Part shown: one piece after another, positions 10,814 through 56,393 of the stretch | Layout: every line of letters starts with the position of its first letter | How positions within the stretch are numbered: position 1 is the first letter of the stretch | Origin: an uncultured Candidatus Izemoplasmatales bacterium | GTDB taxonomy: Bacteria > Bacillota_I > Bacilli_A > Izemoplasmatales > Hujiaoplasmataceae | DNA length: 64,000 nt | NCBI GenBank assembly: GCA_964544325.1 | Contig: CAZJAP010000002.1 | Location: forward strand, 17,335 to 81,334 | Direction: 5' to 3' | Translations under genes and position numbers: made by a program | Notes under the pieces: generated by a model | The model's database searches: none | The model's input: the letters and a program-made list of their open reading frames with translations, nothing else | Told to the model about the DNA's origin: nothing

Positions 10814-11710
10814 ATGAACTATGTTTTTTCTGTCGATAACAAACATCTCGACAAACTAAAAGATTACTACCATAAAATTCAAGTAAAAACTGATAATCCC
10901 ACTTATTTATATTTGTTTAAAAATGATCATCTTACCATTACGGTATATAAATCTTTGAAAGTAATGTTTCAAGGCGAAGATGCTCTAGATGAATATAATA
11001 AATGGGCTTCTTTGCTTGACTTAGAGCCGATTGAACCAGAGGTTATTATCACTAATTATCATAACCAATATTTTAATTATAAGGTAATCGGTTCCGATGA
11101 AGTTGGTACTGGCGATTTTTTTGGCCCTGTTGTTGTTTGTGCAGCTTATGTCAGGCCTCAAGATTATCCGCTTTTAGAAGATATGGATATTAAGGATTCT
11201 AAAAAAATCTCTGATGAAAAAATTAGGCTAATTGGTGAACAACTTATTAAATTAATTCCCCATCATGTTCTTGTTACTAATAACGAAAAATATAATGAGC
11301 TGATTGATAAAGGCTTTAATCTAAATAAAATAAAAGCTTATTTACATAATCATGCCATAAAAAAAATGGTGGTAAAGTATCCTGATTATCAAAAAATTAT
11401 TCTAGATAAGTTTTGTTCAGAAGAAAACTATTTTAATTATTTAAAAACTGAAGAAACAATTAGTAATATAGATTTTTTAACACAAGCTGAATCTGTTCAT
11501 AAAGCTGTAGCTGTAGCCGCAATTATTGCCAGATATCGATTCCTTATTGAGTTTGATAAGTTAAGCGAAAAACTAAACATCACTCTACCAAAAGGAGCGG
11601 GCCCTGCAGTTGATGCTCTAGCTAAAGTAATTGAATTAAAGTATGGCGATGATATTTTCCCTAAAATAGCAAAATTGAATTTTAAAAATTATTTTAAGAT
11701 AAAAAAATAA
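10814..11710 (+). CDS. rnhC: ribonuclease HIII
   Basis: 298 aa; GSDEVGTGDFFGP active-site motif after an N-terminal DUF3378-like domain. Divergent from mutS2. Confidence 0.88.
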   Translation: MNYVFSVDNKHLDKLKDYYHKIQVKTDNPTYLYLFKNDHLTITVYKSLKVMFQGEDALDEYNKWASLLDLEPIEPEVIITNYHNQYFNYKVIGSDEVGTGDFFGPVVVCAAYVRPQDYPLLEDMDIKDSKKISDEKIRLIGEQLIKLIPHHVLVTNNEKYNELIDKGFNLNKIKAYLHNHAIKKMVVKYPDYQKIILDKFCSEENYFNYLKTEETISNIDFLTQAESVHKAVAVAAIIARYRFLIEFDKLSEKLNITLPKGAGPAVDALAKVIELKYGDDIFPKIAKLNFKNYFKIKK

Positions 11711-15265: not shown

Positions 15266-15634
15266 CTAAACTTCAAGTAATGGTACAAAGACAAAAATAA
15301 ATAACAAACCTATGATAACATAAAATAGTGCTAAAATCACCTGATTTATTATCGCTAGGCGATTAAAATTATTTTTAAATTTAGGATTCTTTAATGCTAA
15401 AGACTTCAATAGGAAAAAATGGAATATATATGTTAATAAAATCATGATGAATATAATTACTATAATCCATATTGTCAAATAGTATAAATATACTATAGTT
15501 ATTTGAACTATTGCCGCAATGAAAGGCAATGCTATCAATAAAGTATAAATTAAAGCACCATAAATAGCTGAAAAAAGTTGTTTAGAAGAATATTTTTCAA
15601 ACAAATCTTTCCACATTTCTAAGTAATTTTTCAT
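15266..15634 (-). CDS. small membrane protein, unknown function
   Basis: 122 aa, three to four TM segments; its start has a 4-nt ATGA overlap with the stop of the upstream gene. Confidence 0.5.
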   Translation of the reverse strand: MKNYLEMWKDLFEKYSSKQLFSAIYGALIYTLLIALPFIAAIVQITIVYLYYLTIWIIVIIFIMILLTYIFHFFLLKSLALKNPKFKNNFNRLAIINQVILALFYVIIGLLFIFVFVPLLEV

Positions 15635-18420: not shown

Positions 18421-18861
18421 TTATTTTTTTCTTCGATAATTAAAATTAAAATATTTTCTGCCTAAGTGCAATAATAAATAAGCGAATATAACAATCAATA
18501 TAACAAAAAGATTACCAATATACTTAATTGGTCCATTTAAATAATTATATAAAACAATTATTCCTAAAATTCCAAAAATTGATGTTATTAATAAATAATA
18601 AAACTCTGATGAGTAAGTTGCTTTTACTTGTCGTTTATATTTATCTCTATTTAAAAATAAAATTAATGTTCCCGCAATTAGAGCGACTATATTTATACTA
18701 CCTAAAACTAAAAAATATAGATTCAAGTTTAAATCTTGGTCTACATTAAAAACATAGGTAAAAACCAAGATTAAAGGAATTAATAAAATGATTGTTCCAT
18801 AAAATAAAATAACTCTAATTTCATATTTCGAATATATTCTTGGCCTGATATTCTTTATCAT
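18421..18861 (-). CDS. membrane protein, unknown function
   Basis: 146 aa with four hydrophobic segments; 4-nt overlap with the upstream permease gene. Confidence 0.45.
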   Translation of the reverse strand: MIKNIRPRIYSKYEIRVILFYGTIILLIPLILVFTYVFNVDQDLNLNLYFLVLGSINIVALIAGTLILFLNRDKYKRQVKATYSSEFYYLLITSIFGILGIIVLYNYLNGPIKYIGNLFVILIVIFAYLLLHLGRKYFNFNYRRKK

Positions 18862-20052: not shown

Positions 20053-21360
20053 TTAACAACCACTACAACCAGAACAATCACTATTACATGATTTGCCGGT
20101 AATTTCATCAATAAGATACTGATACAAATCAACCAGTTTAACTTCCACTTGTTCTTTAGTATCAACTGATTTAACGTTTATAATTTGCTTTTTAGCTTCT
20201 TCTTCGCCATAAATCAAATAAAATTTAGGATTAAGTCTATCAGCGATTTTAAATTGAGCTTTTAAACTTTTATTTAAGAAATCATAATCAACAATTAATC
20301 CGCCGTGTCTTAATTCGTTAATTATTCTCAAAGCATCTGTTTGAAAGATATCTCCAATATTAATGAAATAAGCATGAATGTAAGAAGGATTTTCTTCTTT
20401 TTTAATCGATTCTAATGCTAAAAGTAATCTTTCAACTCCAAAAGCAAAACCAACAGCTCCTAATGAAGGGCCTTCTAAAGATTCATACAAATTATTGTAG
20501 CGACCACCACCAACAAGTGTTGATTGTGCTCCTAAAGTTTCCAAATCACTGTCAATCTCAAAAACTGTATGAGTGTAATAATCGAGTCCACGAACTAAAT
20601 TCTTGTCAATCACATAATTTAAACCCAAATTATCTAAAGCATTAATAACTTGATCAAAATGGTAGGCAGCACTTTCGCTTAAATAGTCACATGGTTTTGG
20701 TGCTTTTTCCAATGTTGGACTACCCTTATCAACTTTACAATCAAGTACTCGTAAAGGATTTTCTTTATAGCGACGATTGCAATCTTCACATAAATATTGA
20801 ATGTTATCATCTAAATATTCATTTAGAGCTTTCTGATAATTTTCTTTAGATTCTTTGTCTCCTAAAGAATTAACTCTGACTTGAACATTTTTAATTCCTA
20901 AAGCTTCTAAAAAAGTTGCGGCAAAGTTAATTATTTCAGCGTCAGCTAATGGGCTTAAAGCCCCAATAATTTCAGCGCCAAACTGATGAAATTGTCTTTG
21001 GCGACCTTTTTGCGGTCTTTCATACCTGAACATCGGCCCATAATAATAAAGCTTTAAAGGTAGAAACTCGTCAATATAGAGTTTATTTTCAATCACCGAA
21101 CGAACAACACTAGCTGTTCCTTCTGGCCTTAAGGTATTCATTCTATTTCCACGATCTTCAAAATCGTAAGTTTCTTTCTTAACTATATCAGTGGTTTCGC
21201 CAACTGAACGATGAAACAACTCCGAAGATTCAAAAATCGGAGTTCTAATTTCTGTAAAATTAAATAATTTTGAAACATTTCTCATTACTTCTTCTAATTC
21301 TTGCCATTTTTCAATTTCGTTAGGCAAAATATCTTGTGTTCCTTTTATTCTTCTAATCAT
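20053..21360 (-). CDS. hisS: histidyl-tRNA synthetase with Cys-rich C-terminal tail
   Basis: Class II motifs RPEGTASVVR and YYGPMFRYERPQKGRQRQFHQ. Start moved to ATG 21360 (MIRRIKGTQDILP) behind GGAG RBS. Ends ...GKSCNSDCSGCSGC. Confidence 0.93.
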   Translation of the reverse strand: MIRRIKGTQDILPNEIEKWQELEEVMRNVSKLFNFTEIRTPIFESSELFHRSVGETTDIVKKETYDFEDRGNRMNTLRPEGTASVVRSVIENKLYIDEFLPLKLYYYGPMFRYERPQKGRQRQFHQFGAEIIGALSPLADAEIINFAATFLEALGIKNVQVRVNSLGDKESKENYQKALNEYLDDNIQYLCEDCNRRYKENPLRVLDCKVDKGSPTLEKAPKPCDYLSESAAYHFDQVINALDNLGLNYVIDKNLVRGLDYYTHTVFEIDSDLETLGAQSTLVGGGRYNNLYESLEGPSLGAVGFAFGVERLLLALESIKKEENPSYIHAYFINIGDIFQTDALRIINELRHGGLIVDYDFLNKSLKAQFKIADRLNPKFYLIYGEEEAKKQIINVKSVDTKEQVEVKLVDLYQYLIDEITGKSCNSDCSGCSGC

Positions 21361-21378
21361 CCTGTACTCCTTTTTTTT

Positions 21379-21407
21379 AAAAAGTCGCCCTTTTAGAGAA
21401 GGACGAC
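21379..21407 (-). terminator. rho-independent terminator after the ACP gene
   Basis: 9-bp stem (21384-21392 / 21399-21407, one G-U pair), 6-nt loop, then TTTTT on the minus strand. Confidence 0.7.
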
Positions 21408-21428
21408 AATTTTCAAGCAAGTGATATT

Positions 21429-27032: not shown

Positions 27033-28124
27033 CTAATCGATATCCATTTTGATTTGACCATCAAATTTTACTTTTGTATTCTTTTTTACGATTTTTACCC
27101 ATTTAGCACTTCTACCAACACCAACAGCTCTTATGACATTTTCATCAGATAATCTCTTCAGTGTCCTATTAATTGTCGAATCAGAAATTGATGGATGTCT
27201 ATTTCTTATATCTTCTTTTGAAAATACATCACCTAATTTAAAAATAGTATTCTCAACATAGTCAGTTTTATTTATCGAAAGGTCTTGATCATATTTAAAA
27301 TCTCGAGACACATCTTTAAGTTCGACATAGAAACTATTAAAAATATTGATAAAGAAACTCATTAAAGGCATCAAATCAGGTAAACCTTGCTTACTTTGAA
27401 CTAAAATACGATTCATTATATCATCATATTCAGTCTTATATAAATTTAATTTTTGAAAGAAAGAAAGGTAATTAGCAGCTTTAAAGTGATTTTCAACCAT
27501 TAAAATATAAAAAATCAAAACTCCGAGACTGTGATTATATGGCATATCAAAAACTTCCATGCCAATAAAATCAATCATAAAGTTTAAATATAAGAATATT
27601 GGCTCGACACTTTTTTCCTTAGCAATTTTATTTAGATTATCAAGATATTTTTCCAAAACTTCTCTCATCGACTGAGTTTCGGACATAAACATCCCTTTTT
27701 TCTTGCCGAATTTACGGTATTTTAATTTTTCTTTGGTAAGAACATTACTAAATAACAGCATAAATAAATCGTTAATTTCACCTAAATCTAAATTAAACGG
27801 ATCAACATTTTCAATATGAATTTTCCGGAAAATAGATATTAGATTTTTATATAATTGTTCGGATTTATTATTAGCGACTGAAGAATCTAAAAGTAGGGTT
27901 CTATAACGACTTTCTTTGATTTTAAAATCTTGAGAAAAAAAGATTTTAAAGAAATATTCTGAATTTTTCTGAGCTATATCATTTTTTATGTAATCGATAT
28001 TTTTATTAAATATTTCTTCATAAATGGGGTTTTTTCCCATTTCATAGTAAAGGGTTGTAGTATTATTAAACACTTCATGAGTTACAAGATTAACTTTTAT
28101 ACGATCTAAACAATTCATATTCAC
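27033..28124 (-). CDS. Fic/DOC-like protein with degenerate active-site motif and C-terminal winged-helix domain (tentative)
   Basis: 363 aa. The C-terminus DSTINRTLKRLSDENVIRAVGVGRSAKWVK looks like the wHTH of Fic-family proteins. Where HPFxxGNGRxxR is expected, the sequence reads MEVFDMPYNHSLGV. Confidence 0.35.
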   Translation of the reverse strand: MNMNCLDRIKVNLVTHEVFNNTTTLYYEMGKNPIYEEIFNKNIDYIKNDIAQKNSEYFFKIFFSQDFKIKESRYRTLLLDSSVANNKSEQLYKNLISIFRKIHIENVDPFNLDLGEINDLFMLLFSNVLTKEKLKYRKFGKKKGMFMSETQSMREVLEKYLDNLNKIAKEKSVEPIFLYLNFMIDFIGMEVFDMPYNHSLGVLIFYILMVENHFKAANYLSFFQKLNLYKTEYDDIMNRILVQSKQGLPDLMPLMSFFINIFNSFYVELKDVSRDFKYDQDLSINKTDYVENTIFKLGDVFSKEDIRNRHPSISDSTINRTLKRLSDENVIRAVGVGRSAKWVKIVKKNTKVKFDGQIKMDID

Positions 28125-28146
28125 CCTCCTAAAACTTAAAAAATGA

Positions 28147-29370
28147 TTAATTTAAAAATGTAATTACTTTAAGTATAAAATCTTCTTCCCAATCAAAGTT
28201 TGCAAGGTACCAATCACTATCAAGCAAATTATCAAATTCTTGATATTGTTCATAATCAAGAAAATCCATTGTAATGTCACTAAAATAAGTGTTTACAATT
28301 GTTTTATCACCATAACTTTCGGCAATTAGAGGCTCTTTAAAAACGTTAACACCTTGAAGATTATAGCTTTCTAAATTACCTATTACTATGGTATCTTTTA
28401 TTAAACCTGAAGAATCTTCAGCTATTAAAAGACTTAGAAAATGTTCTTTTCCATCACCAAAAATTGTTGTTTTTAAGATATTTCCATAAGTGTTTCCATA
28501 AGAACTATAGCCAAACAAACCACCTGTTAATAAACTATCATTTTCACTTTTGCCAATTATAAAACTTTCAGCAAAATTATTATATACAGCGACATTTTTG
28601 ACAATTCTTTCAACTTCATATCCAGCTGTTATTCCGTTATAATTATGACCGACTAAGCCGCCGATAATTGCAGAATTTGCCAGCGATTCAGCAGATATAT
28701 TAACATCAACTGTATTATCATGAATTCTACCGTTAAAATTTTGACCGATTAAGCCACCGACATAAACATGTTTTTCTCCGATAACATCAATTGTTCCCTT
28801 AACAAAAACATTTGAAATTATTGCTGGTTCAAAAGCGGATACATCAGTTGATAAAAGTTGACTTTTTGCTTGCCCACCTAGAAGTCCGACATAAGATTTA
28901 GAAAAGGTATTAATTACACTAATATCCCCTGATAAAGTAATATTATCCACTTCACCTGAAATTGATCCAGCTAAACCTCCAGCATAGGTAACAAACTCAG
29001 ATTCATAATCAATTAAGAAATCTTTAATTTCTAAATCAAAAACTTCTCCTTCTATTAGACCGAAAAAACCGTTATAAGTATTATCACTAGTAATTTCAAG
29101 ATTGGAAATAACTTTATCATTACCATCAAAAATACCCAAATAAGGATTATTAAAATCTCCTAATGGCAACCAATTTAGCCCTGTCAAATCAAGATCATTC
29201 ATTAAGATATAAGATTTATTCATCTCAATATTTTTAAGTTCATCAACGGTAGTAATTTCAATGAAATTATCACGATCTACTGTAATTACTGGCGCAGTTG
29301 TTCCAGTCGCTTGGAAATTACAACCGACCAAAGCAAACATCAAAAATATAAATAAGAGTAATTTTTTCAT
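28147..29370 (-). CDS. lipoprotein with GLUG-type repeats
   Basis: Signal peptide plus lipobox MKKLLLFIFLMFALVGC. Recurrent GGL[AIVF]G motifs (GGLAGSISG, GGLIGQNFNG, GGLVGHNYNG, GGLFGYSSYG). Confidence 0.7.
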   Translation of the reverse strand: MKKLLLFIFLMFALVGCNFQATGTTAPVITVDRDNFIEITTVDELKNIEMNKSYILMNDLDLTGLNWLPLGDFNNPYLGIFDGNDKVISNLEITSDNTYNGFFGLIEGEVFDLEIKDFLIDYESEFVTYAGGLAGSISGEVDNITLSGDISVINTFSKSYVGLLGGQAKSQLLSTDVSAFEPAIISNVFVKGTIDVIGEKHVYVGGLIGQNFNGRIHDNTVDVNISAESLANSAIIGGLVGHNYNGITAGYEVERIVKNVAVYNNFAESFIIGKSENDSLLTGGLFGYSSYGNTYGNILKTTIFGDGKEHFLSLLIAEDSSGLIKDTIVIGNLESYNLQGVNVFKEPLIAESYGDKTIVNTYFSDITMDFLDYEQYQEFDNLLDSDWYLANFDWEEDFILKVITFLN

Positions 29371-34095: not shown

Positions 34096-34716
34096 GTGAT
34101 TAAATATCTATTTCTAATAATCGCCTACTTAATCGGTTCTATACCGTTTTCATATATCCTTGGAAAATACATTAAAAAAGACGATATTCGTAAACACGGA
34201 AGCGGCAATTTAGGTACTACAAACGCATTTAGAGTTTTTGGAGCATTAGTCGGTATTTCTGTTCTCGTACTCGATACTTTAAAAAGTGGTATTTTTGTTT
34301 TACTAGCTAAAGAATTAGCAAACAACTATGACATGTTTCCGGCAATAATCTATGGTGCTGTTGCGGTCATAGGACATATTTTCCCTGTGTGGATGAAATT
34401 TAAAGGCGGAAAAGGCGTGGCTTCGGCTTTCGGTATTTTACTGTTTTTCTATTGGCCGATACCAATCTCTTTACTACCGGTATTTGTTATAACTCTATTA
34501 ATTTCTAAATATGCCTCTTTATCTTCAACCGTTGTTACTATCTTAGCGTTTTTAAGCGGGCTTGTTCTTTACTTAGTTGGCGGTACACCAATTGATTTAG
34601 TTTTTGTAATTACTACTGGTCTTTTAATGTTATTGATTATGTTTAAACATCGTTCAAACTATCGTCGCATTCTTGATGGTAATGAAAACAAAATTATTTT
34701 TAAAAAGAAGAATTAA
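34096..34716 (+). CDS. plsY: glycerol-3-phosphate acyltransferase PlsY
   Basis: GSGNLGTTN motif; GTG start behind GGAGG; TGgTATAAT extended -10 at 34064-34072. Confidence 0.9.
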   Translation: MIKYLFLIIAYLIGSIPFSYILGKYIKKDDIRKHGSGNLGTTNAFRVFGALVGISVLVLDTLKSGIFVLLAKELANNYDMFPAIIYGAVAVIGHIFPVWMKFKGGKGVASAFGILLFFYWPIPISLLPVFVITLLISKYASLSSTVVTILAFLSGLVLYLVGGTPIDLVFVITTGLLMLLIMFKHRSNYRRILDGNENKIIFKKKN

Positions 34717-41226: not shown

Positions 41227-42615
41227 CTATAAAAATTCTTTTTTTAAGTAAGCAGTTAATTCTTCTATTTTCACTCTAACTTGTTCCATAGAATCTCTAT
41301 CTCTCACAGTTACAGTATTATTTTCCAAAGTTTCGTTATCGATTGTAACGCAATAAGGTGTTCCAATAGCGTCAGCACGACGATAACGTCTTCCTATATT
41401 TCCAGCGTCATCATAAAAAGCAACAAAATCTTTTAACAATATTTCAAAAACTTCTTCTGCTTTTTCAGTGTGATATTTTTTTACTAAAGGTAAAACATTT
41501 ACTTGATAAGGAGCTAACTCTTTATTGATTTTAAGTAATGTTCTAACTTCTCCGTTTTCTAAAGTTTCATCTTCCAAGTTATCTAATAATAGAGCTAAGA
41601 ATAATCTTTCCACACCCAATGAAGGTTCGATAACATAAGGGAAATAAGATTCATTGGTCAAAGGATCAAGATACTCAAGATTTTCACCAGAAAATTCTTG
41701 ATGTTGTTTTAAATCATAATCTGTTCTTGAAGCAATACCCCAAAGTTCATCAAAACCCCATGGAAAATTATATAAAACATCTGTGGTAGCATTTGAATAG
41801 AAAGATAGTTTTTCCTTTGGATGATTATAGAATTGCAGATTCTCTTCTTTTAAACCGATTTCTAGTAAAAATTCTTTAGCGTAACTTTTCCAAAAATCAA
41901 ACCACTCAATTTCTGTTCCCGGAACACAGAAAAATTCTAACTCCATTTGTTCAAACTCTCTAGTTCTAAACACAAAATTACCCGGAGTAATTTCATTTCT
42001 AAAAGATTTACCGATTTGGCCAATTCCAAAAGGAACTTTCTTTCTTGAAGTTCTAACAACATTTTTGAAATTTAAAAAGATTCCTTGAGCTGTTTCAGGA
42101 CGTAAATAGATTTCATTATTACTATCTTGAGTAACACCTTGTGATGTTTTAAACATCAAATTGAATTCTCTAATTTCTGTATAATCAAAACCGCCACAAT
42201 TTGGACAGTGAATCTTATTTTCGATAATGTAATCATACATTTTTTGGTAATCCCAGCCATCGGCATCGACTTTACCTTTAGTAGCCTGAGAAATCAAATT
42301 ATCTGCACGATGTCTCGTTTTACAACTTTTACAATCCATCAAAGGATCCTTAAACCCACTTACATGTCCTGTCGCTTCCCATACTTTTGGATTAAGTAAA
42401 ATAGAAGAATCAATTCCGACATTTAATTTATTTTGTGAAACGAATCGTTTCCACCAAAATTGTTTAATATTATTTTTTAAACTAACACCTAAAGGGCCAT
42501 AATCCCAAGTGTTAGCTAATCCTCCATATATTTCTGAGCCTTGATAAACAAAGCCATATCTCTTAGCATAAATATTAAGCTGTTCAATAGTATATTTCAA
42601 AGTAATTTCCTCCAT
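41227..42615 (-). CDS. glyQS: glycyl-tRNA synthetase (dimeric GlyQS type)
   Basis: [18 protein letters not shown] and class II motifs. The ATG at 42615 lies inside a GGAGG; TTG at 42600 (7 nt after that GGAGG) is an alternative start. Confidence 0.92.
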
Positions 42616-46466: not shown

Positions 46467-46634
46467 TGCTTTCACCCCTTTTCTTACCATTTAGTATTAT
46501 ACTAAATATTAAAGAAAAAGTAAACTTATTTTTTTTGAAAATATATTTAAATATGGCCTATTTTATGGTAAAATTATACAAGATATACAAATTTGGAACT
46601 TTAAATCAAAAATCTATTAAAAGGAGTGATAGTC

Positions 46635-47282
46635 ATGGATAATAATATGTTGTTTTTAATGCTTGATACTCAAGGAATAATTATCCTTTCAGTAATCGCT
46701 CTTTTAGTTTTAATTCTTTTAGGAATAATTATTTCTAACAGTAAATATAAGGCTAGATATAGACGTTATTATAAAAAAATCGATAAAGATATCAATAAAA
46801 AATATAATGGTAATATGCTTATAGAAAATTTAGTAAACAAATATACCAAAGACAATACCAACACATATAAATCTTTGAAACAAAAAGGCAAAGTATTAAC
46901 TAAAAAATATTTGAACTACTACTTTACAAAATTACCCGAGTTGGTACTTTTAAAAAGTTTTATTTCATCTGATAAAAATAAAAGTGAATTAATTATATAT
47001 TTAATGGATGAAAATGAACGATTGCTATATCAATGGAATAAAAGCAAAAAAGTTAAAGGTTTAATTAAGGCAATAAATAAGTATCAAATGCTTATGCCAA
47101 TGATTGCTTTTCTATATGAACTACCACTTAATATTAATGAATCTAAGCCTTACCGTTTAGTTAACCATGATAATGATAATATTTTGTCATATGATATTGT
47201 AAAAAATACTAAAAAATTCAATAAGAAGCATAAAAAAGTAAAAACAAAAGAAAAGAATAAAAAGAATAAAAAGAAAAAATAG
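46635..47282 (+). CDS. membrane-anchored lysine-rich protein, unknown function
   Basis: 215 aa from ATG 46635 behind AAGGAG. One N-terminal TM segment, a very basic body and a poly-K tail (KKHKKVKTKEKNKKNKKKK). No family recognised. Confidence 0.5.
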   Translation: MDNNMLFLMLDTQGIIILSVIALLVLILLGIIISNSKYKARYRRYYKKIDKDINKKYNGNMLIENLVNKYTKDNTNTYKSLKQKGKVLTKKYLNYYFTKLPELVLLKSFISSDKNKSELIIYLMDENERLLYQWNKSKKVKGLIKAINKYQMLMPMIAFLYELPLNINESKPYRLVNHDNDNILSYDIVKNTKKFNKKHKKVKTKEKNKKNKKKK

Positions 47283-48607: not shown

Positions 48608-49327
48608 TTATTCCTCCGTAAGATAGCGGAAAATTGACGCTACATAGATTGCAGCTGTTTCTGCTCTTAGTATTGTTTTACCTAACGAAATACTTGTAAA
48701 CCCTGATTTTTCTAAACTTTTAATTTCCTCATCACTAAATCCGCCTTCAGGACCAATTAAAACAAGTGTGCTCTCGTTTGCGTTAAATGGTTCAAGTACA
48801 GATTTGATATTATTGTTTTCTTCACGAGCGTAACAAAAATACTTGTGATCATAATTTAAACTTTTTAAATCTTCAAGCTTTAAATAATCAGCTATTTCAG
48901 GTATCATTGTTCTTTCTGATTGTTCGCTAGCTTCCTTTAAAATTGTTTGATATCTTAACTTTTTTTTAGAAAAATCATCTAATTTAATAATTGATCTCTT
49001 TGTTTTTAAGGGAATAACCTTATTTACACCTAGTTCTGTTACTTTCTGTAAAATCAGTTCGAAATTATCTTTTTTGATTAAACTTATTCCTAAATCAAGG
49101 TTTAAAGGTTTCCAGTCACTTTTGATTTCATCGATTATTTCTAAAACAATGCTTTTTTTGTCAATACTAGTAATCATAGATAGATAAAGTGAACCATCAT
49201 AAGTATTTAAGATAAGTTTATCATTTAATTTATTTCGCATGACATCTTTAATATGATGGACATCTTGTCCATCAATAACAACTATATTTTCTTTAATTTG
49301 ATTTCTATCTATAAAGTATCTTTGCAT
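48608..49327 (-). CDS. rsmE: 16S rRNA (uracil1498-N3)-methyltransferase
   Basis: 239 aa from ATG 49327 (MQRYFIDRNQ...); C-terminal GPEGGFSDEE and LGKTILRAETA motifs. Confidence 0.88.
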   Translation of the reverse strand: MQRYFIDRNQIKENIVVIDGQDVHHIKDVMRNKLNDKLILNTYDGSLYLSMITSIDKKSIVLEIIDEIKSDWKPLNLDLGISLIKKDNFELILQKVTELGVNKVIPLKTKRSIIKLDDFSKKKLRYQTILKEASEQSERTMIPEIADYLKLEDLKSLNYDHKYFCYAREENNNIKSVLEPFNANESTLVLIGPEGGFSDEEIKSLEKSGFTSISLGKTILRAETAAIYVASIFRYLTEE

Positions 49328-49372
49328 ATTATCACCAAATCTATCATACCAAAAATAACCTTTAAATACTAG

Positions 49373-49399
49373 AAAAAACAACCGAAACTTTCGGTTGTT
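49373..49399 (-). terminator. rho-independent terminator closing the padR-jetABC-like operon
   Basis: 9-bp stem aacaaccga/tcggttgtt (49377-49399), 5-nt loop, T6 run on the minus strand. It starts 20 nt after the SMC-like gene's stop. Confidence 0.8.
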
Positions 49400-49418
49400 T
49401 TAATAAATTTATTGATTT

Positions 49419-52400
49419 TTATATATCAGTTTTGATTACTTCATAAGCTCTTGCAATTTTACCATCTCTTAATGTAACTATGGTTGTATCTGTATATTTG
49501 GATAATACTTCCATTTTTTGTGGTGGAGTAGCTAAAAGGATTTGTACAGGCAATTGTTTAATAAACTTCATCATTGCTTTAATTCTTGAAGTATCCATCT
49601 TATCGAAAACTTCATCGAAGAGAATTAAACCGATTGAATCATTGTTAATTCCTCTAGCAGCTTGTTCGAAAACTCTAACAAAGGATGCAAGTGTAGCAAC
49701 ATAGAATGGAACTTGAGTTTCCCCACCACTCTTTTCTTTAAATACCTTAGAATAAAGATATCGATCTTGGGCTGTGTTAGAAATCGCAATATCATAATCC
49801 ATGTAAGTTCTATAATCGGTAAATTTATTGACTGAACCTTGAGAATTCAAGTCTTCTGAAGCTAAATTTATAAATAATTCTTCTAATTGTCTTTGATATT
49901 TTCTTTCAAAATCATAGTTGAAAATTTCTTCACCAGTTTTCATTGATTCATCGCTTAAGACCATATCATAGTATTCGCCATACTCTTTTGATTTAGGGAA
50001 AATAAATTCATAAGTGTCTTCACCAAAATGAATATTTTTTAAAGTTTCATTGATCTTGGATATTTCCTCTTGAGCTGAAACTATATAGTTTCTTAGTTTG
50101 GCAATAAAATCTTCTTTAAATAATTTCTCAGCAGTTTCTCTTGCTTCTCTTACTTTTGTTTCATATTTAACAAGTTCTGATTTAACTAATTTATCCAATT
50201 CATCTAAGTATTCTTGCATATAGTCTAAGCCATATTTATAACTTAAATTATATTTTGAAGTATAACGAATCTGTGAATTTTTAAGAGAGTCTTCTAAGTT
50301 TATAATATTATTTAATTCTGATTCGATTTTAGCTTGATAATCTTCAGAGATTTGATTTATATTTGTTGATTTTTTAAGTTCAATTTGATATAAATCAAGA
50401 GCTTCTTTTTTAGCGACGAGATTTTCGTTTGAATCAAGTTTTTCGGTAATAGCTTTGATACTAGTTTCAATTTCTAGTAATTCATCATGAGCTTTAAGTT
50501 CATCGCTATCCAATTTTCCTTGTTTTAAGTAAGCTTTTTCACGATTAGTATTCAAATTTCTAATCTCTTCTTTAACTTCTTCATATTCTTTTCTTAGTTC
50601 TGATAAATCTTCTTGAGGTACATTCTTTTTCTTAAGAGCTAAAGCTTTTCTCTTATCTTTTAAAGCGTCAAGCGAATAATATGTTTTCAACATATTGATA
50701 AATGCTTCTAAATTAAGAGCTGAAAGTGCATTATTTTCTTCACTTATCATTTGAATTTTATCTGATATTTCTTGATGTTTATCCTTTAGTTCTTTAGCTT
50801 TTTGTCGCCAGTTTTCTAGTTGTTGATTCCGAGCTTTCTTACCAATAAATGGTTTTTCTGTTTTGTTATATAAAGATCTTACAGTATATGAACGATAGAC
50901 CATACCGCTATTAGTAATAGCTTGAGGATATTTTTCTAGCTCATTTACATCATCTACCATGATAAGATTACCACAAATCATATTTACATAATGTTCAGCA
51001 TCGATATTATCTGACGAAATTATTGAAGCTAGAGAGTTTTCTCTAAAATTTGTGAAATGTTGGATTTTTTTAGTATTTACTAAACCGATGCCATAAATAT
51101 CTAAACTATCCTTAATTTGATTATAAACATTTAAAGCTTCGTCAAAATATCTTGGTTCCACAATTAAATTAAATCTCTGCTGTCCTAAGTAATCTTCAAT
51201 AGTATTAGCCCAGTCACTGTCAGTTATTTCCAATAATTCACAAAGAATATGAACTTTAATTTCTTTACCATATCTCTTTAAGACTCCTTCTTCAATTTTA
51301 GCTTGAAGTCTTTTAATCATTGGATTATATCGAAGTTGATTGTTTTCTAAATCTTTTAAAGTAAGATAAACTTCATTAATTTCCTTTACAATATCATCAC
51401 GAACTTGTTGGTATCTTCCTAAACTGACTTTATTATTGTCTTCGATGTCTTTTAAACTTTTATTTATAGTTATTAACTTAAGTTTTTGATCTTCATAATT
51501 TTCATCATCAATTTTATCTAAATCAATTCGTTCAAGTTCATTATAAACTTTGTTATTAAATTCACTTTTCAGCTCTTTAATAACTTGTTTCATCTTTTTA
51601 ACTTTTGTTGTTGCATAATTTCTAAGTTCTACTTGTTGATCAATTTTCTTAGTTAATTCAGAAATTTCTTTATCATAAATTTCTGTAGCTTTAAAACTGT
51701 CGTTATTTTTCAACATTGAATAAATTTCTCTAGAACGATCATCTAAAATTTCAAGTTGCGAATTGATTTCTTCAATAAGTTTCTTGTTTTGTTCTTTACT
51801 TATTTCAATTTTCTCTTGTTTTTTATTTACTTGATCAATTTTGTTTTTCAGTGATTCGACTTCTAAAAGTTCTAAGAAATATTCATAGAATTGTTTTTGA
51901 TCTTGATTATTTTTTATTTCTTCATATAGATGTTTTATATGATCTAGATCATTAACTTTTTCTTTAATAATTTTTAATGTCGCTTCTAAATCTCTATATG
52001 CATGAATAGATTCCTTTATTGATTCAACATCCAGTTCTTTTTCTTCCAAAAGATAGCGATAAATAAAATCTTTTACGTCTGGAATCGGTTTAAATGCTAA
52101 GGCTTTTGGTAAAAGTGAGAAATAATTTTCATTAATTGAACCAAATAGTGATCTGAAAGCTAATTTAGCTTCACGTCTTGTCAAGTAAACTTTATTAGCT
52201 TTTTTAGTTTTCTTAAAATTAACTGTTGTTAAAATTTTACCTTCTTCATCAATAAATAGTGATTCTTCAATTTGACCATCATATTCATAAAAAATTACTT
52301 TTGGTTGTAAAATATCGCCAAAAACATCAATAACAGTACCTACAGTAAAGTATTTTGCTTTCTTTTCATCATAGAACTCCAAAGCGACGTGACCGGTAGT

Positions 52401-52658
52401 ATCACATTCTCTAAGATATTCTTGGTTATCTGTACCAAGTTTACACTTTACATAGCCGCGTAAATCTCTTTTGCTTTTTTCATTTGCAGCTATATTGAAT
52501 ATTTGATCCCCTGCTGTTAGAACAAAAGCAATAGCATCCACTATAGTAGACTTACCAGTTGCGTTTTGACCAGTAATTAATGTATTGTTTTTAATGTGAA
52601 GAGTTTCGTTAGCAAAATAATGCCAATTAATTAATCTAATTTTAGTTAATTTCTTCAT
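49419..52658 (-). CDS. SMC-like ABC ATPase, JetC/MksB-like
   Basis: 1079 aa from ATG 52658 (MKKLTKIRLINWHYF...), GAAGGTG RBS. Walker A GQNATGKST; C-terminal signature SGGETQ and Walker B LILFDEVFDKMD. About 900 aa of K/E-rich, coiled-coil-like sequence lies in between. Confidence 0.8.
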   Translation of the reverse strand: MKKLTKIRLINWHYFANETLHIKNNTLITGQNATGKSTIVDAIAFVLTAGDQIFNIAANEKSKRDLRGYVKCKLGTDNQEYLRECDTTGHVALEFYDEKKAKYFTVGTVIDVFGDILQPKVIFYEYDGQIEESLFIDEEGKILTTVNFKKTKKANKVYLTRREAKLAFRSLFGSINENYFSLLPKALAFKPIPDVKDFIYRYLLEEKELDVESIKESIHAYRDLEATLKIIKEKVNDLDHIKHLYEEIKNNQDQKQFYEYFLELLEVESLKNKIDQVNKKQEKIEISKEQNKKLIEEINSQLEILDDRSREIYSMLKNNDSFKATEIYDKEISELTKKIDQQVELRNYATTKVKKMKQVIKELKSEFNNKVYNELERIDLDKIDDENYEDQKLKLITINKSLKDIEDNNKVSLGRYQQVRDDIVKEINEVYLTLKDLENNQLRYNPMIKRLQAKIEEGVLKRYGKEIKVHILCELLEITDSDWANTIEDYLGQQRFNLIVEPRYFDEALNVYNQIKDSLDIYGIGLVNTKKIQHFTNFRENSLASIISSDNIDAEHYVNMICGNLIMVDDVNELEKYPQAITNSGMVYRSYTVRSLYNKTEKPFIGKKARNQQLENWRQKAKELKDKHQEISDKIQMISEENNALSALNLEAFINMLKTYYSLDALKDKRKALALKKKNVPQEDLSELRKEYEEVKEEIRNLNTNREKAYLKQGKLDSDELKAHDELLEIETSIKAITEKLDSNENLVAKKEALDLYQIELKKSTNINQISEDYQAKIESELNNIINLEDSLKNSQIRYTSKYNLSYKYGLDYMQEYLDELDKLVKSELVKYETKVREARETAEKLFKEDFIAKLRNYIVSAQEEISKINETLKNIHFGEDTYEFIFPKSKEYGEYYDMVLSDESMKTGEEIFNYDFERKYQRQLEELFINLASEDLNSQGSVNKFTDYRTYMDYDIAISNTAQDRYLYSKVFKEKSGGETQVPFYVATLASFVRVFEQAARGINNDSIGLILFDEVFDKMDTSRIKAMMKFIKQLPVQILLATPPQKMEVLSKYTDTTIVTLRDGKIARAYEVIKTDI

Positions 52659-53247
52659 TTTCTTCACCTTCGTTCTTATCTTCAATATTAGCGATAAGAT
52701 TATAAACATCATTTATTGCTTGAGTGTTGATTGCTAACAAAATCGTTGGATAAATAACAATCTTTGTATTTGCTTTAGTAATATCTCCAAGAGGTTCAAT
52801 TAAATTTAATCTTCTATAAATCCTTAAAATCTTGACTAAATCTGTTTTGTTGATTTTTTTCTTAAGTTCTAAAGAATCATAATATGTGTGTATTTCATCA
52901 ACTTTAATAACGATATTATCATTGATAGATGTTTTAACAAGATGTTGATGATAAAGAATTCTTAAAATAAGGAGTACTAAAGTTTCATCTTTTTTAAGTC
53001 TAAGCAAGTTGCTACCCTCACGGTTTATTAGTTGGACAGCGCCTAATTCTCTATCTAAAACTATTTCAAAATCAATAACGTCAAAATACTCATCAAAATA
53101 ATTTTTAAAACTTAAAATAAAATAATACATTTCTTTATTGTCTTCTTTATCTCTAGCTATAAAACTATTTTGTAAAAGCTTGAGGCATGTTCTTGCAAAT
53201 AATTGTCTCTGGCCCATATTTAAGTCATCAAATTTTTCTAAAATCAT
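52642..53247 (-). CDS. MukE/KITE-like subunit, JetB/MksE (DUF4194)-like
   Basis: 201 aa with an acidic tail. Size, its position between the 472-aa gene and the SMC gene, and segments such as VLDRELGAVQLIN and RLKKDETLVLLILRIL fit the DUF4194 pattern (by eye only). Its 3' end overlaps the SMC gene by 17 nt. Confidence 0.6.
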   Translation of the reverse strand: MILEKFDDLNMGQRQLFARTCLKLLQNSFIARDKEDNKEMYYFILSFKNYFDEYFDVIDFEIVLDRELGAVQLINREGSNLLRLKKDETLVLLILRILYHQHLVKTSINDNIVIKVDEIHTYYDSLELKKKINKTDLVKILRIYRRLNLIEPLGDITKANTKIVIYPTILLAINTQAINDVYNLIANIEDKNEGEENEEIN

Positions 53248-53249
53248 TT

Positions 53250-54668
53250 TTAATACCCCCTAATTATTTCAAAATCATCAAGTTCAAATCTCTTATTATT
53301 AATTTTTTCATATAATGGATTAATTGCGTAATCAAGTTCTTCTCCGGCATAAACTAATATGTAAAGCAATCTTATTATCGATTCATCGCTCATATCATCG
53401 CGAAGAATTTCAGATGCCTTTATCAATTTATTGTTTCTGAAATATTCTTTCAAATATTTAGCGATTACATCTTCTGAATAATTTGTTTCAAATTCATTGT
53501 AGAATTCTTCTTGAAGTCTTCTATCTGGTCCGCCATTATTTTCTACAAGGTATTGAGCATCGGACCTTCTATAAATTCCTCTTGGAGTATAAACTGATCT
53601 AGAGGATAATTGTTGATAAGAGTTGATGTTAAATAGTGGTGAAATATCATTCATAGCCTTGTGAGTTTTATTGTTTCTAATGTTTTTCCCAGTATATTTC
53701 AATATTCTGCTTAATTTCGTTATAACATTTTCGTCATCTGATAATAAAAATTTAATTTTAGCTATTGTAGTATTTACATATACTTTATTCTTTTCATCAA
53801 TTTCATCGATAATATAGGAAATAGAATTATAGATATCAATTATGTCATCTATTTTCTTGTTTGCTTTAATCATCGCGATGTCAGGGTCATTATGATTTTT
53901 AACTAGGTATTCTTTGCTAATGATTTCCATTATTAAAGGATTTTGTTGATATTCCTCTAGTTTTCTAACGATATCAACTCGATATTTATTGATATTATCG
54001 CTAGTTTTAAGTCTTCTATATGCTTGATCAACTAATTCTACCTTATAGTTTACTAATAAATTAATAAGGTCTTTTATTTCGCTATTTTCAACAATTGATC
54101 GAATATAGTATTTAAGTCTTGAATCAAGTTTTCTAATTTCTCTAACAAAAGCAACAGTATTTTTATAAACTTGATCTATGGTAAGTGCATATTCACCATG
54201 ATCATTAGTAAGTAGCGAATAGACTGTAAAAATATATCCTCTAAATTCATGGGCTTCACTCTCTTCACCGTAATAAGAATCATTGGCGATTTCTTTCAAA
54301 GCTTCTATTACAGTAATAGCGTAATCACGAAAGTTAAGAATCTCTTCATAATCATTATTGACATCTATGTCAATCCACTCACATTCTTCAAGTCTTCTAA
54401 GAATTTGATTAGCGCGATCTCTGTTAGTAATTAAAGAGCCCTCTTCCCCCTCTTCAATCTCTTCTTCATAATCGTCATCTAATGGATTAATATCTAAATA
54501 ATCAATAATGGCTTGTTTTGCAATATTTTTATCAATTCCTAGAATTGAACCTTGTTCATATACTTTAAACAATTCTAAAATGCAACTAACATAAACACGA
54601 TGGTTTTTGCTTGATAAAACACTAAAAAATTGTTTTGGTATTATATCAAATACATTCATTTTTCTCAC
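53250..54668 (-). CDS. kleisin-like subunit, JetA/MksF (DUF3375)-like
   Basis: 472 aa (or 469 from ATG 54659). It is first in the structural gene order and kleisin-sized. The N-terminal FFSVLSSKNHRVYVSCILELFKVY resembles JetA/MksF N-terminal wHTH regions (by eye only). Confidence 0.55.
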   Translation of the reverse strand: MRKMNVFDIIPKQFFSVLSSKNHRVYVSCILELFKVYEQGSILGIDKNIAKQAIIDYLDINPLDDDYEEEIEEGEEGSLITNRDRANQILRRLEECEWIDIDVNNDYEEILNFRDYAITVIEALKEIANDSYYGEESEAHEFRGYIFTVYSLLTNDHGEYALTIDQVYKNTVAFVREIRKLDSRLKYYIRSIVENSEIKDLINLLVNYKVELVDQAYRRLKTSDNINKYRVDIVRKLEEYQQNPLIMEIISKEYLVKNHNDPDIAMIKANKKIDDIIDIYNSISYIIDEIDEKNKVYVNTTIAKIKFLLSDDENVITKLSRILKYTGKNIRNNKTHKAMNDISPLFNINSYQQLSSRSVYTPRGIYRRSDAQYLVENNGGPDRRLQEEFYNEFETNYSEDVIAKYLKEYFRNNKLIKASEILRDDMSDESIIRLLYILVYAGEELDYAINPLYEKINNKRFELDDFEIIRGY

Positions 54669-54671
54669 ATC

Positions 54672-55022
54672 CTAACTTTCTCTAAAGTACTTAAAATTAC
54701 CACCAACTAAAGATGATAATGTATTTTCAATCATGACCCAATCTTTTCTAAACTCTTTAATAGCTTTTTTACCTTTTGGAGTGATTTGATAATAACGTCT
54801 ACTCATTCCTTTTTTATTTTTACCAGTATAAGAAGTTACCATTTTTTCTTTAACTAATCTTTTTAGTGCAATGTAAAGAGTAGCTTCATTCAGTTGAAAG
54901 TTATTTTCACTAACAACTTCTATTATTCGTGTCATTTCATAACCATAACTATCAAATTTAGATAAAATTGAAAGAATTATATAATCAGTAAATCCGCGAA
55001 CAAATTCGCCTGAGTTAGTCAT
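54672..55022 (-). CDS. PadR family transcriptional regulator
   Basis: 116 aa; FVRGFTDYIILSILSKFDSYGYEM...LYIALKRLVKEKMVTSY...RRYYQITPKGK is a typical PadR wHTH; RBS AAGGGGGTGA. Confidence 0.85.
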   Translation of the reverse strand: MTNSGEFVRGFTDYIILSILSKFDSYGYEMTRIIEVVSENNFQLNEATLYIALKRLVKEKMVTSYTGKNKKGMSRRYYQITPKGKKAIKEFRKDWVMIENTLSSLVGGNFKYFRES

Positions 55023-55061
55023 TATCTCACCCCCTTTATATAATCTTTTTATATATAGTCT

Positions 55062-55105
55062 TGTTATGTATTATCTTATTATAGATATTTTGTTTATACA
55101 TAACA
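55062..55105. promoter_or_regulatory. 10-bp perfect inverted repeat (candidate PadR operator)
   Basis: tgttatgtat (55062-55071) and atacataaca (55096-55105), 24-nt spacer with a nested TATCT/AGATA palindrome. The promoter-proximal arm begins 7 nt downstream of the -10 box. Confidence 0.4.
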
Positions 55106-55112
55106 TGTTTAT

Positions 55113-55141
55113 ATTATAACTCTTAAGGTATAGGTTGTAAA
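55113..55141 (-). promoter_or_regulatory. near-consensus sigma-A promoter of the padR-jetABC-like operon
   Basis: Minus strand TTTACA (55141-55136), 17-nt spacer, TATAAT (55118-55113). Confidence 0.65.
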
Positions 55142-55190
55142 TAGAAAATCTGAAATTTATTTATTTTTTTATCATTACATTCTTTAGCAT

Positions 55191-55218
55191 AAAAAAAAGG
55201 CAGTCATTTTGACTGCCT
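55191..55218 (-). terminator. rho-independent terminator after dnaJ
   Basis: 9-bp stem aggcagtca/tgactgcct (55198-55218), 3-nt loop, T8 run on the minus strand. Confidence 0.85.
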
Positions 55219-55226
55219 AATTTGTT

Positions 55227-56351
55227 TTATGTTCGATTAAAATTTGATTTGAAACGATCCCACCAATTTTTTTGTGGAGTCGCTTTGTCCTCTACTCTAA
55301 TTAAATCTTCAAATATCTTTTTTTGTTGCGGGCTTAACTTTTGTGGTGTTACAACAGTAATAATAACGTGTTGATCACCTAATTGCTTAGTTCTAATGTT
55401 TGGCGCACCTTTACCTTTTATTCTAAATTTAGATTCAGATTGAGTTCCTGATGGAATTTTAAGAAGAACCGGTCCATAAACCGTATCGACTTTAATTTCT
55501 GTACCTAAAGCAGCTTGGGCAAAAGTGATTGGAACATTAACAATAATATCATCACCTTCACGAATATATTTATCTGAAGGTTTAACTTCAAACACAATAT
55601 ATAAGTCACCGTTAGGACCGCCATTTGAACCTTTATTACCAAAGCCTTCTAAACGAATTTGTTGCCCGGTTTCTATGCCTTTCGGAACTCTAATTTCAAC
55701 TTCTTTAGTTATTCTTTCAACACCTTCACCGTTACAATTATGGCATTTATTAATTATTTCTTTTCCTGAGCCTTTACATGTAGGACAAATTGTTTGAGTT
55801 TGTGTTCTACCAAATAATGTTTGTTGTTCAACTATAACTGCTCCTGAACCACCACATCTAGAACAAACCTTAATATCTTTTTTGCTTTCCGCTCCAAGAC
55901 CATGACATACATGACATTCATCATATACAGGGATTTTTACTTTTTCAGTTTTTCCAAAAATTGATTCTTCAAAACTTATCGTCATCCTTCTTTGAATATC
56001 AGATCCCTTGTGCGGTCTATTTGTTGCTCGAGATGTTCTTTGACCGCCACCGAAAAAGGCACTGAAAATATCTCCAAAATCAAACCCTTCGAATCCCGCT
56101 CCGCCAAAACCACCTTGACCGAAACCTCCATTAGCAGCTTGATGTCCGAATTGATCATACTGACTTCTCTTAGTTTGATCACTTAAAACATCATATGCCT
56201 CTTGAACTTCTTTAAATTTAGCTTCAGCATTGTCTTCAGTCGAAACATCTGGATGATATTTCTTCGCTAATCTTCGATACGCTTTTTTTATTTCATCATC
56301 TGAGGCTGTTTTGCTAACGCCTAAAACCTCATAGTAATCTCTTTTATCCAT
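55227..56351 (-). CDS. dnaJ: chaperone DnaJ
   Basis: 374 aa from ATG 56351 ([12 protein letters not shown]), HPD motif, G/F region, four CxxCxGxG zinc-finger repeats. Confidence 0.95.
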
Positions 56352-56393
56352 TAAACCACCTCGAGCCTGTGGCAAAAACTAATTTGCCAAATC

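Follow-up and report, generated by a model that had tools for sequence, protein, structure and literature searches.

A JetABC operon without a local JetD gene, linked to a PadR regulator and conserved at a core chromosomal site in Izemoplasmatales, may act like MksBEF

What does a Wadjet motor do when its nuclease gene is missing from the locus? The question is raised by an operon in a stretch of 64,000 nucleotides from an uncultured Candidatus Izemoplasmatales bacterium (assembly GCA_964544325.1, contig CAZJAP010000002.1, positions 17,335 to 81,334 of the forward strand), here called the window. On its minus strand, at 49419..55022, four co-directional genes, padR, jetA, jetB and jetC, encode a PadR-family regulator and the kleisin, KITE and SMC-like ATPase subunits of a Wadjet-type complex, see Table 1. 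An initial annotation of these genes, made from the sequence letters, had placed three readings side by side: a condensin-type MksBEF, a defence module using a nuclease encoded in trans, and an effector-less silencing or compaction mode. Our evidence favours the condensin-type MksBEF, and the other two keep lower probabilities. The operon belongs to the type I JetABC lineage and most likely works like MksBEF. With moderate confidence, we take it for a domesticated, PadR-autoregulated, MksBEF-like loop extruder that acts on the chromosome.

To identify the four proteins, we compared them with profile hidden Markov models. The regulator matches Pfam PF03551 over all 75 model positions (2.5e-19, 69.5 bits against a cut-off of 27). 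JetA matches PF18982 (JetA/DUF5716; 2.8e-73, 247 bits, cut-off 26.2) and, at residues 3-470, the PADLOC model JetA1 (2.1e-107). This is not the kleisin family that had been suggested at first, PF11855 (DUF3375). JetB matches PF13835 (DUF4194; 1.6e-26, 93 bits, cut-off 32.7) and over its full length JetB1 (1.7e-57), while its score for the Pfam MksE family PF21980, 24.3 bits, stays under the cut-off of 27. In JetC both AAA_29 (6e-18) and SbcC_Walker_B (6.5e-22) are found, JetC1 matches at residues 1-1069 (9.9e-303), and the alignment with the solved E. coli JetC, PDB 8AS8, spans the entire protein (5e-15). The identity to the solved protein is low, and the phmmer match reaches only 58 bits over about 1060 residues. 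None of the NCBIfam Muk/Mks models matched the operon proteins. By sequence, they belong to the type I Jet models and not to the Mks families.

The ATPase motifs of JetC are a Walker A of GQNATGKST, a signature of SGGETQ and a Walker B of LILFDEVFDKMD, and all three are invariant in the 44 complete sequences of the clade. Conservation is highest in the heads and the hinge, and 353 of the 1079 columns do not vary at all. JetABC appears to have all parts of a kleisin-KITE-SMC complex of type I Wadjet descent and to be ATPase-competent. With the kleisin, KITE and SMC subunits all present and selection acting on the ATPase, it is probably an active SMC motor. The initial annotation had described four co-directional genes 2-3 nucleotides apart or overlapping, JetA/JetB/JetC-like proteins, these ATPase motifs, and a strong terminator followed by rsmE behind the SMC gene. 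We recover each of these features: the coordinates hold on the minus strand, the Pfam and PADLOC models give full-length type I Wadjet matches, the motifs are present, and the terminator has a 12-bp stem.

The nuclease was searched for at several levels. A JetD profile was made from three JetD proteins of plasmid-borne type I systems, where jetD lies directly after jetC. In six-frame translations of the window and 67 related loci this profile found nothing better than E = 0.06. The Pfam scans took in 44 window open reading frames (ORFs) and so included the majority of the 56 that reach 120 amino acids, and neither of the JetD Toprim families (PF09983, PF11795) was among these 44; the Toprim domains there belong to ParE and DnaG only. 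Within about 10 kb of the operon no JetD was found in 66 Izemoplasmatales species, and across the same species no nuclease is a conserved neighbour. The absence of JetD from the 64 kb, which had been pointed out before, is in this way extended to the flanks of the related loci. A six-sequence JetD profile run against a protein collection gave 64 matches, none from Izemoplasmatales, a weak negative given its word-index prefilter. Every JetD-bearing system that we examined has jetD immediately after jetC. We also considered a JetD hidden in the variable gaps on either side of the operon (jetC-rsmE and dnaJ-padR); the ORFs there are unrelated cargo, and none matches the JetD profile. The operon is not a member of JetABCD, as the defining nuclease was looked for and not found locally. 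Without JetD, the extrusion-then-cleavage reaction of the characterised type I systems is not possible.

To see how stable this arrangement is, one genome per GTDB species was scanned. The scan gave 66 loci, all of the padR-jetABC type, including those of the complete genomes WC30, B36, zrk2 and OW818673, with the accessions CP134495.1, NZ_CP168077.1, CP076020.1 and OW818673.1. Homologues of JetA number in the hundreds, with 59-98% identity, and those that carry a name are from Candidatus Izemoplasmatales, Izimaplasma, Mycoplasmatota and Tenericutes. The closest are from Candidatus Izemoplasmatales, in agreement with the Mollicutes-like housekeeping setting that had been recognised at first. 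Wherever the flanks are long enough, the order is hrcA-grpE-dnaK-dnaJ, 0-9 kb of variable DNA, padR-jetA-jetB-jetC, 0-6 kb of variable DNA, and rsmE-mtaB-...-phoH. The padR gene is directly upstream of jetA in all Izemoplasmatales loci that reach that far (61/66), the padR-jetABC block is uninterrupted in all related loci, and the PadR orthologue group (139 matches, 59-99% identity) is restricted to the Izemoplasmatales clade. In every complete locus of the 66 species the frames of jetA, jetB and jetC are intact.

The evolution of the operon follows that of its core neighbours. The identity of JetA, JetB and JetC to the window proteins, 59-90%, follows the identity of PhoH, HrcA and MtaB with Pearson r of 0.81-0.98. 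Due to saturation of the synonymous distance (dS), the comparison of rates was limited to the nonsynonymous distance (dN). To the nearest relatives, dN is 0.07-0.11 for JetA/B/C and 0.06-0.11 for DnaK and DnaJ, against 0.18-0.23 for MtaB and 0.32-0.39 for RsmE. The padR-jetABC genes are inherited vertically under strong purifying selection, unlike the turnover that defence islands would be expected to show.

We then placed JetC among its relatives. In an exhaustive search over representatives of 50%-identity clusters, a single representative (67% identity) stands for the Izemoplasmatales JetC; after it come neighbours with 48%, 45% and 42%, and all others have at most 37%. In the neighbour-joining tree, Izemoplasmatales form a clade with the lineages P0122, P0123 and P0124 at a bootstrap of 100%, and all its examined members are without JetD. 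The nearest sister of this clade is the JetD-bearing P0152, with a bootstrap of 74%. The plasmid-borne type I systems also carry jetD. A plasmid or phage origin of the operon was rejected, as the best plasmid matches to JetC are only 25-30% identical.

The simplest history suggested by the tree is that JetD was lost once, in an ancestor common to Izemoplasmatales and three sister lineages of low-GC Bacilli. According to this history, jetD would have been lost at the base of the clade, the operon would have settled beside dnaJ, and padR would have been gained later, in the ancestor of Izemoplasmatales. As judged from its gene order, the Wadjet motor of P0123, which is without JetD, stands at the end of a cluster of division genes, and the linkage to sepF in this sister lineage points to an association with the cell cycle.

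Loci without jetD are also found outside this clade. Haloplasma contractile has jetABC and no jetD, branches elsewhere (0% support with the clade), and carries HD and NERD genes downstream. In P0128, also without jetD, RmuC comes after jetC and an AlkZ-like gene lies upstream. Both loci (L075:7973-15342 and L077:5021-11909) have other nuclease-like genes downstream of jetABC, and the RmuC, HD and NERD neighbours may be alternative effectors.

In the window padR and jetA are separated by 3 nucleotides (12 with the ATG start discussed below), jetA and jetB by 2, and jetB and jetC overlap by 17. Met4 of JetA is invariant in 16 homologues and the homologues are mostly 464-470 amino acids long, so the true start of jetA is probably the ATG at 54659. 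The protein that had been described as kleisin-sized with 472 amino acids is indeed the kleisin JetA, with a probable length of 469. The open frame of jetC reaches back to 52712, yet the homologues begin at MKKLTK, which sets the start at 52658 and not at the first ATG of the frame. The terminator behind jetC lies 18 nucleotides past the stop codon and folds with -13.6 kcal/mol (z = -4.76), and none of 200 shuffled sequences folds as well. From the promoter at 55141 to this terminator at 49369, the unit holds padR and jetABC and nothing else, while the terminator behind dnaJ shields it from upstream transcription. We read padR-jetA-jetB-jetC as one operon that is probably autoregulated.

Downstream of the jetC terminator follows rsmE. 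Its mechanically called ORF (48608-49381, from a TTG at 49381) overlaps the terminator, and the homologues align from MQRYF. The real start is probably the ATG at 49324, with an intergenic region of 94 nucleotides.

The proposed autoregulation is based on the region in front of padR. The promoter matches the consensus at 11 of 12 positions, the best score in the region, and 56 of 60 related loci have TTTACA-N17-TATAAT in front of padR. An array of TATRYATAA boxes follows the -10 element, ahead of the ribosome-binding site. In 59 loci, counting from where the -10 element starts, these boxes stand at +16, +31, +46, +61 and +76; 93 of 134 box spacings are exactly 15 nucleotides and 12 are 30 nucleotides. 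Each promoter has 2-6 boxes, compared with 0.068 per random 75-nucleotide window, and the distance from the -10 element to the ATG varies by steps of about 15 nucleotides. The boxes are near-palindromic 10-mers, often the perfect palindrome TTATGCATAA. In the window alone the motif has no significance, with TTATRYATAA seen once against 1.64 expected by chance; the operator signal is due to position and phase across species.

A canonical PadR operator is a single ATGT-N8-ACAT dyad. Given the conserved boxes and the strict adjacency of padR and jetA, we propose that the array is the operator of this PadR. The initial annotation had called the operon PadR-controlled: the conserved operator-like array and the strict gene pairing agree with this, and the control itself is our interpretation of them. 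PadR would bind the phased boxes cooperatively, over the stretch bounded by the -10 element and the ribosome-binding site, and so repress its own operon. Autorepression would keep a potentially toxic DNA compactor at a constant dose. Equally possible, PadR would release the operon upon an unspecified ligand or stress signal. In the literature that we searched, no paper links PadR with Wadjet, MksB or JetC, and none describes Wadjet or MksBEF in Izemoplasmatales.

According to our model of the complex, a dimer of JetC dimers, bridged by JetA, would load on DNA and extrude loops. Extrusion would help to compact, organise or segregate the chromosome rather than to cut plasmids, and after the loss of JetD the complex would have been kept as a core chromosomal gene set. 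Loop extrusion and the chromosomal target are inferred, and so are the binding of PadR and its autorepression. An MksBEF-type role is favoured because of the fixed core site, the order-wide vertical inheritance, the housekeeping-like rates, the single loss of JetD and the sister lineage that abuts sepF. In a review, MukBEF was suggested to share such an MksBEF-like history, in which a former defence machine without its nuclease became a chromosome organiser.

Several observations weigh against this role. Chromosome organisation has not been shown for the characterised type I JetABC. Even to the closest relatives, dS exceeds 1 or cannot be computed, and with such saturation a formal dN/dS is unreliable. 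The negative result for JetD covers the window and flanks of about 10 kb, and a nuclease may be encoded elsewhere. The pairing of a dedicated repressor with several operator sites suggests that expression is conditional, which is seen more often with accessory or stress functions than with a constitutive condensin. Finally, F919 of the E. coli JetC docks JetD, which binds at the "larynx" of the JetC head (bioRxiv 10.1101/2023.11.03.565488). The window has kept a phenylalanine at the equivalent position (F913), as have 35 of the 44 clade members.

In the remaining members this residue is Leu (7) or Met (2), and in P0124 it is Ile. As a discriminator for JetD the residue was rejected: the replacements (Leu/Met, Ile, Tyr, Tyr) occur preferentially in confirmed JetD-free lineages, and the sample is too small.

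Among the alternatives, the one that survives best, although we consider it unlikely, is that the complex restricts plasmids or other small circles without cutting them. Compaction, silencing or sequestration, switched by PadR, would act here as proposed for Smc5/6 against viral episomes. A repressor-controlled operon suits such an inducible accessory function. In work from 2021 by Zheng and colleagues, cultured Izemoplasma are said to degrade and use extracellular DNA. JetABC alone is able to sense the shape and size of DNA and stalls on small circles, but the Wadjet systems tested so far need both JetD and the contact between JetC F919 and JetD in vivo (for both, a review and bioRxiv 10.1101/2023.11.03.565488), and plasmid restriction has yet to be demonstrated for a Wadjet without its nuclease. 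The order-wide conservation and the DnaJ-like rate suit a housekeeping role better, and the sepF linkage of the sister lineage points to the cell cycle instead.

A stronger version of the chromosomal role is that JetABC without JetD serves Izemoplasmatales, and perhaps the sister lineages too, as their main or even sole SMC complex for folding the chromosome, having replaced Smc-ScpAB. We regard this as rather doubtful. The Pfam families of SMC, ScpA and ScpB are absent among the scanned window ORFs, and no SMC signature/Walker B pattern was found in any of the related loci retrieved, a search over these loci only. If true, the replacement would be a second, independent takeover in the style of MukBEF, inside Bacillota and from the biochemically best understood type of Wadjet.

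It is improbable, in our estimate, that the operon is an anti-plasmid Wadjet whose nuclease is encoded elsewhere, either as a relocated JetD or as another nuclease recruited to the stalled JetABC. Most clade members have kept the phenylalanine that docks JetD, and the JetD-free loci that adjoin RmuC (P0128) or HD/NERD (Haloplasma) make effector swapping seem possible. However, 9 of 44 clade members have Leu or Met at the docking position and P0124 has Ile, and no nuclease recurs beside the operon in the 66 species. The JetD-bearing systems examined all keep jetD next to jetC, and the profile search of the protein collection, a weak test, gave no Izemoplasmatales match. Slow vertical evolution at a core locus also sets the operon apart from its JetD-bearing relatives, which lie in defence-island contexts.

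Other roles, such as DNA repair or stress response, receive a similarly small share of our confidence. That the operon is a decaying, functionless remnant of a Wadjet that lost its effector can practically be dismissed: JetD, the executing subunit of the characterised systems, is missing, but the frames are intact in 66 species, the ATPase motifs are invariant in 44/44 sequences, 353/1079 JetC columns do not vary, and dN is as low as for DnaJ.

Table 1. Features of the operon in the window, followed by the JetC lineages used for comparison.
Feature	Position	Strand	Description
padR	55022..54672	-	116 amino acids; single-domain PadR-family winged-helix regulator; first gene of the operon
jetA	54668..53250	-	kleisin subunit (MukF/MksF analogue); 472 amino acids from GTG
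jetB	53247..52642	-	KITE subunit (MukE/MksE analogue); 201 amino acids
jetC	52658..49419	-	SMC-like ATPase (MukB/MksB analogue); 1079 amino acids from MKKLTKIRL
Sigma-70-type promoter	55113..55141	-	TTTACA 55141..55136, 17-nucleotide spacer, TATAAT 55118..55113
Candidate PadR operator array	55047..55103	-	TATRYATAA boxes in 15-nucleotide phase
TATRYATAA boxes	55102..55094, 55087..55079, 55072..55064, 55057..55049	-	between -10 element and ribosome-binding site
Ribosome-binding site	55034..55028	-	GGGGGTG
Terminator of the hrcA-grpE-dnaK-dnaJ unit	55198..55218	-	9-bp stem with 5 G-C pairs, then eight T
Intrinsic terminator ending the operon	49369..49401	-	12-bp stem, 3-nucleotide loop, T run
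P0122			hrcA-grpE-dnaK-dnaJ-jetABC; without padR, without jetD
P0123	L073:6244-11887		jetABC, then sepF without a gap, then ileS; without jetD; 45% JetC identity
P0124			DUF1189-jetABC; without jetD
P0125, P0127			jetABCD adjoining restriction or mobile genes; 37% identity
P0152			jetABCD, then AbiE; JetD-bearing

The setting of the operon is an unbroken series of housekeeping genes, nearly all on one strand. Among the scanned ORFs we find the families of lon, tig, ribF, truB, mutS2, rnhC, rluD, lspA, hisS, dtd, relA and apt, and further recJ, parC, parE, plsY, degV, trmK, sigA, dnaG, glyS, recO, era and phoH. The genes mtaB, rsmE and hrcA-grpE-dnaK-dnaJ were identified via the Pfam families of their orthologues in the WC30 locus. 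The GC skew is negative across all 64 kb. From the one-stranded genes and the uniform negative skew it follows that the window is core chromosome on one replichore, and its genes are co-oriented with replication. Of the 56 ORFs that reach 120 amino acids, only 3 on the plus strand have the look of real genes, namely rnhC (10814-11710), plsY (34096-34716) and a Lys-rich membrane ORF of 218 amino acids (46626-47282).

In B. subtilis the gene order is dnaJ-prmA-rsmE-mtaB. In the window (48608-56375) padR-jetABC stands where B. subtilis has prmA, and none of the scanned window ORFs resembles prmA.

In the relatives, the gap between dnaJ and padR is a hotspot of 0-9 kb of variable cargo (for example L015:206-9639, L025:4416-9639 and L035:5708-9630). 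The cargo includes a radical-SAM protein of 294 amino acids in many lineages, a surface protein of 2291 amino acids, an AAA ATPase, transporters and similar genes, as well as pairs of a protein of about 220 amino acids and a membrane protein of about 480. The gap between jetC and rsmE reaches 0.6-6 kb in some relatives and holds thioredoxin-like lipoproteins or surface proteins, one of them with 1622 amino acids. In many Izemoplasmatales lineages a lipoprotein-like ORF of about 156 amino acids with a Cys-x-x-Cys motif, thioredoxin-like by eye, comes right after jetC (L037:15302-15772, L045:15356-15826, L048:7054-7527); it is absent from the window.

Four window ORFs have no Pfam family (363, 219, 122 and 146 amino acids), and for an ORF of 407 amino acids between recJ and parC a GLUG motif is the sole match; these ORFs lie at 27033-29370, 911-1570, 15266-15634 and 18421-18861. 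Neither Rfam families at the gathering threshold nor tRNA genes were found in the 64 kb. The Rfam scan also shows no T-box leader before hisS (20053..21420) or the glycyl-tRNA synthetase gene (41227..42615). T-box leaders on such genes are common in Bacillota.

The locus matters first for annotation, as public records call these genes "Wadjet anti-phage system protein" although the system is without an effector. The field regards MksBEF and MukBEF as machines that once served defence and, after losing their nuclease, turned to organising chromosomes. For these two no intermediates survive, and their sequences are now far apart. Here we have a well-sampled case in type I Wadjet, for which structures are solved and both loop extrusion and cleavage have been reconstituted. 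The nuclease-free loci form a nested series, after dnaJ without PadR, beside sepF, and order-wide with PadR, while a JetD-bearing sister survives. A comparison along this series could show what changes in JetABC once it is no longer an immune sensor. The question of a chromosomal action of a Wadjet motor and that of the control of its dose could also be addressed. Several hosts have complete genomes and isolate-style strain names (WC30, zrk2, B36).

Compared with known systems, the operon is closest in its parts to the type I Wadjet JetABCD of E. coli GF4-3 (PDB 8AS8/8BFN/8Q72) and P. aeruginosa PA14 (PDB 8DK1-3). The families are the same, as is the gene order jetA-jetB-jetC with overlapping or abutting cistrons. 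Unlike these systems, it has no jetD and has an added PadR regulator, and where type I Wadjet sits in defence islands or on plasmids, it occupies a fixed core site and evolves vertically and slowly.

With MksBEF of P. aeruginosa, the functional model that we adopt, it shares the three-subunit kleisin-KITE-SMC composition without MksG/JetD. However, its proteins fit the JetA1, JetB1 and JetC1 models and not the Mks families, and its loss of JetD would be an independent event in Bacillota for which a JetD-bearing sister is known. MksBEF has been described as scattered by horizontal transfer, whereas the operon here is vertical across an order. Like MukBEF, it is a Wadjet-like SMC complex that became fixed in a single lineage, in the case of MukBEF as an organiser of the chromosome and here probably so. 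MukBEF replaced Smc-ScpAB, and its gene order and sequences differ from those found here. We know of no PadR-type regulator involved in MukBEF. MksBEFG of Corynebacterium glutamicum and EptABCD of Mycobacterium smegmatis are, like this operon, chromosomal Wadjet-family systems of Gram-positives; unlike it, they keep the MksG/EptD nuclease and restrict plasmids.

On the regulatory side, the PadR here resembles PadR-family autorepressors such as PadR of B. subtilis and LmrR of L. lactis: it is a short winged-helix protein encoded beside its presumed target genes, with AT-rich sites that have ATGT/ACAT cores over the promoter. The single dyad known from PadR operators differs from the 2-6 near-palindromic boxes in strict 15-nucleotide phase seen here. 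Beside all these systems, what is new is the order-wide vertical fixation of a JetD-free JetABC, the apparent single loss of JetD with an extant JetD-bearing sister, the linkage to dnaKJ and sepF, and a PadR gene with a 15-nucleotide-phased array.

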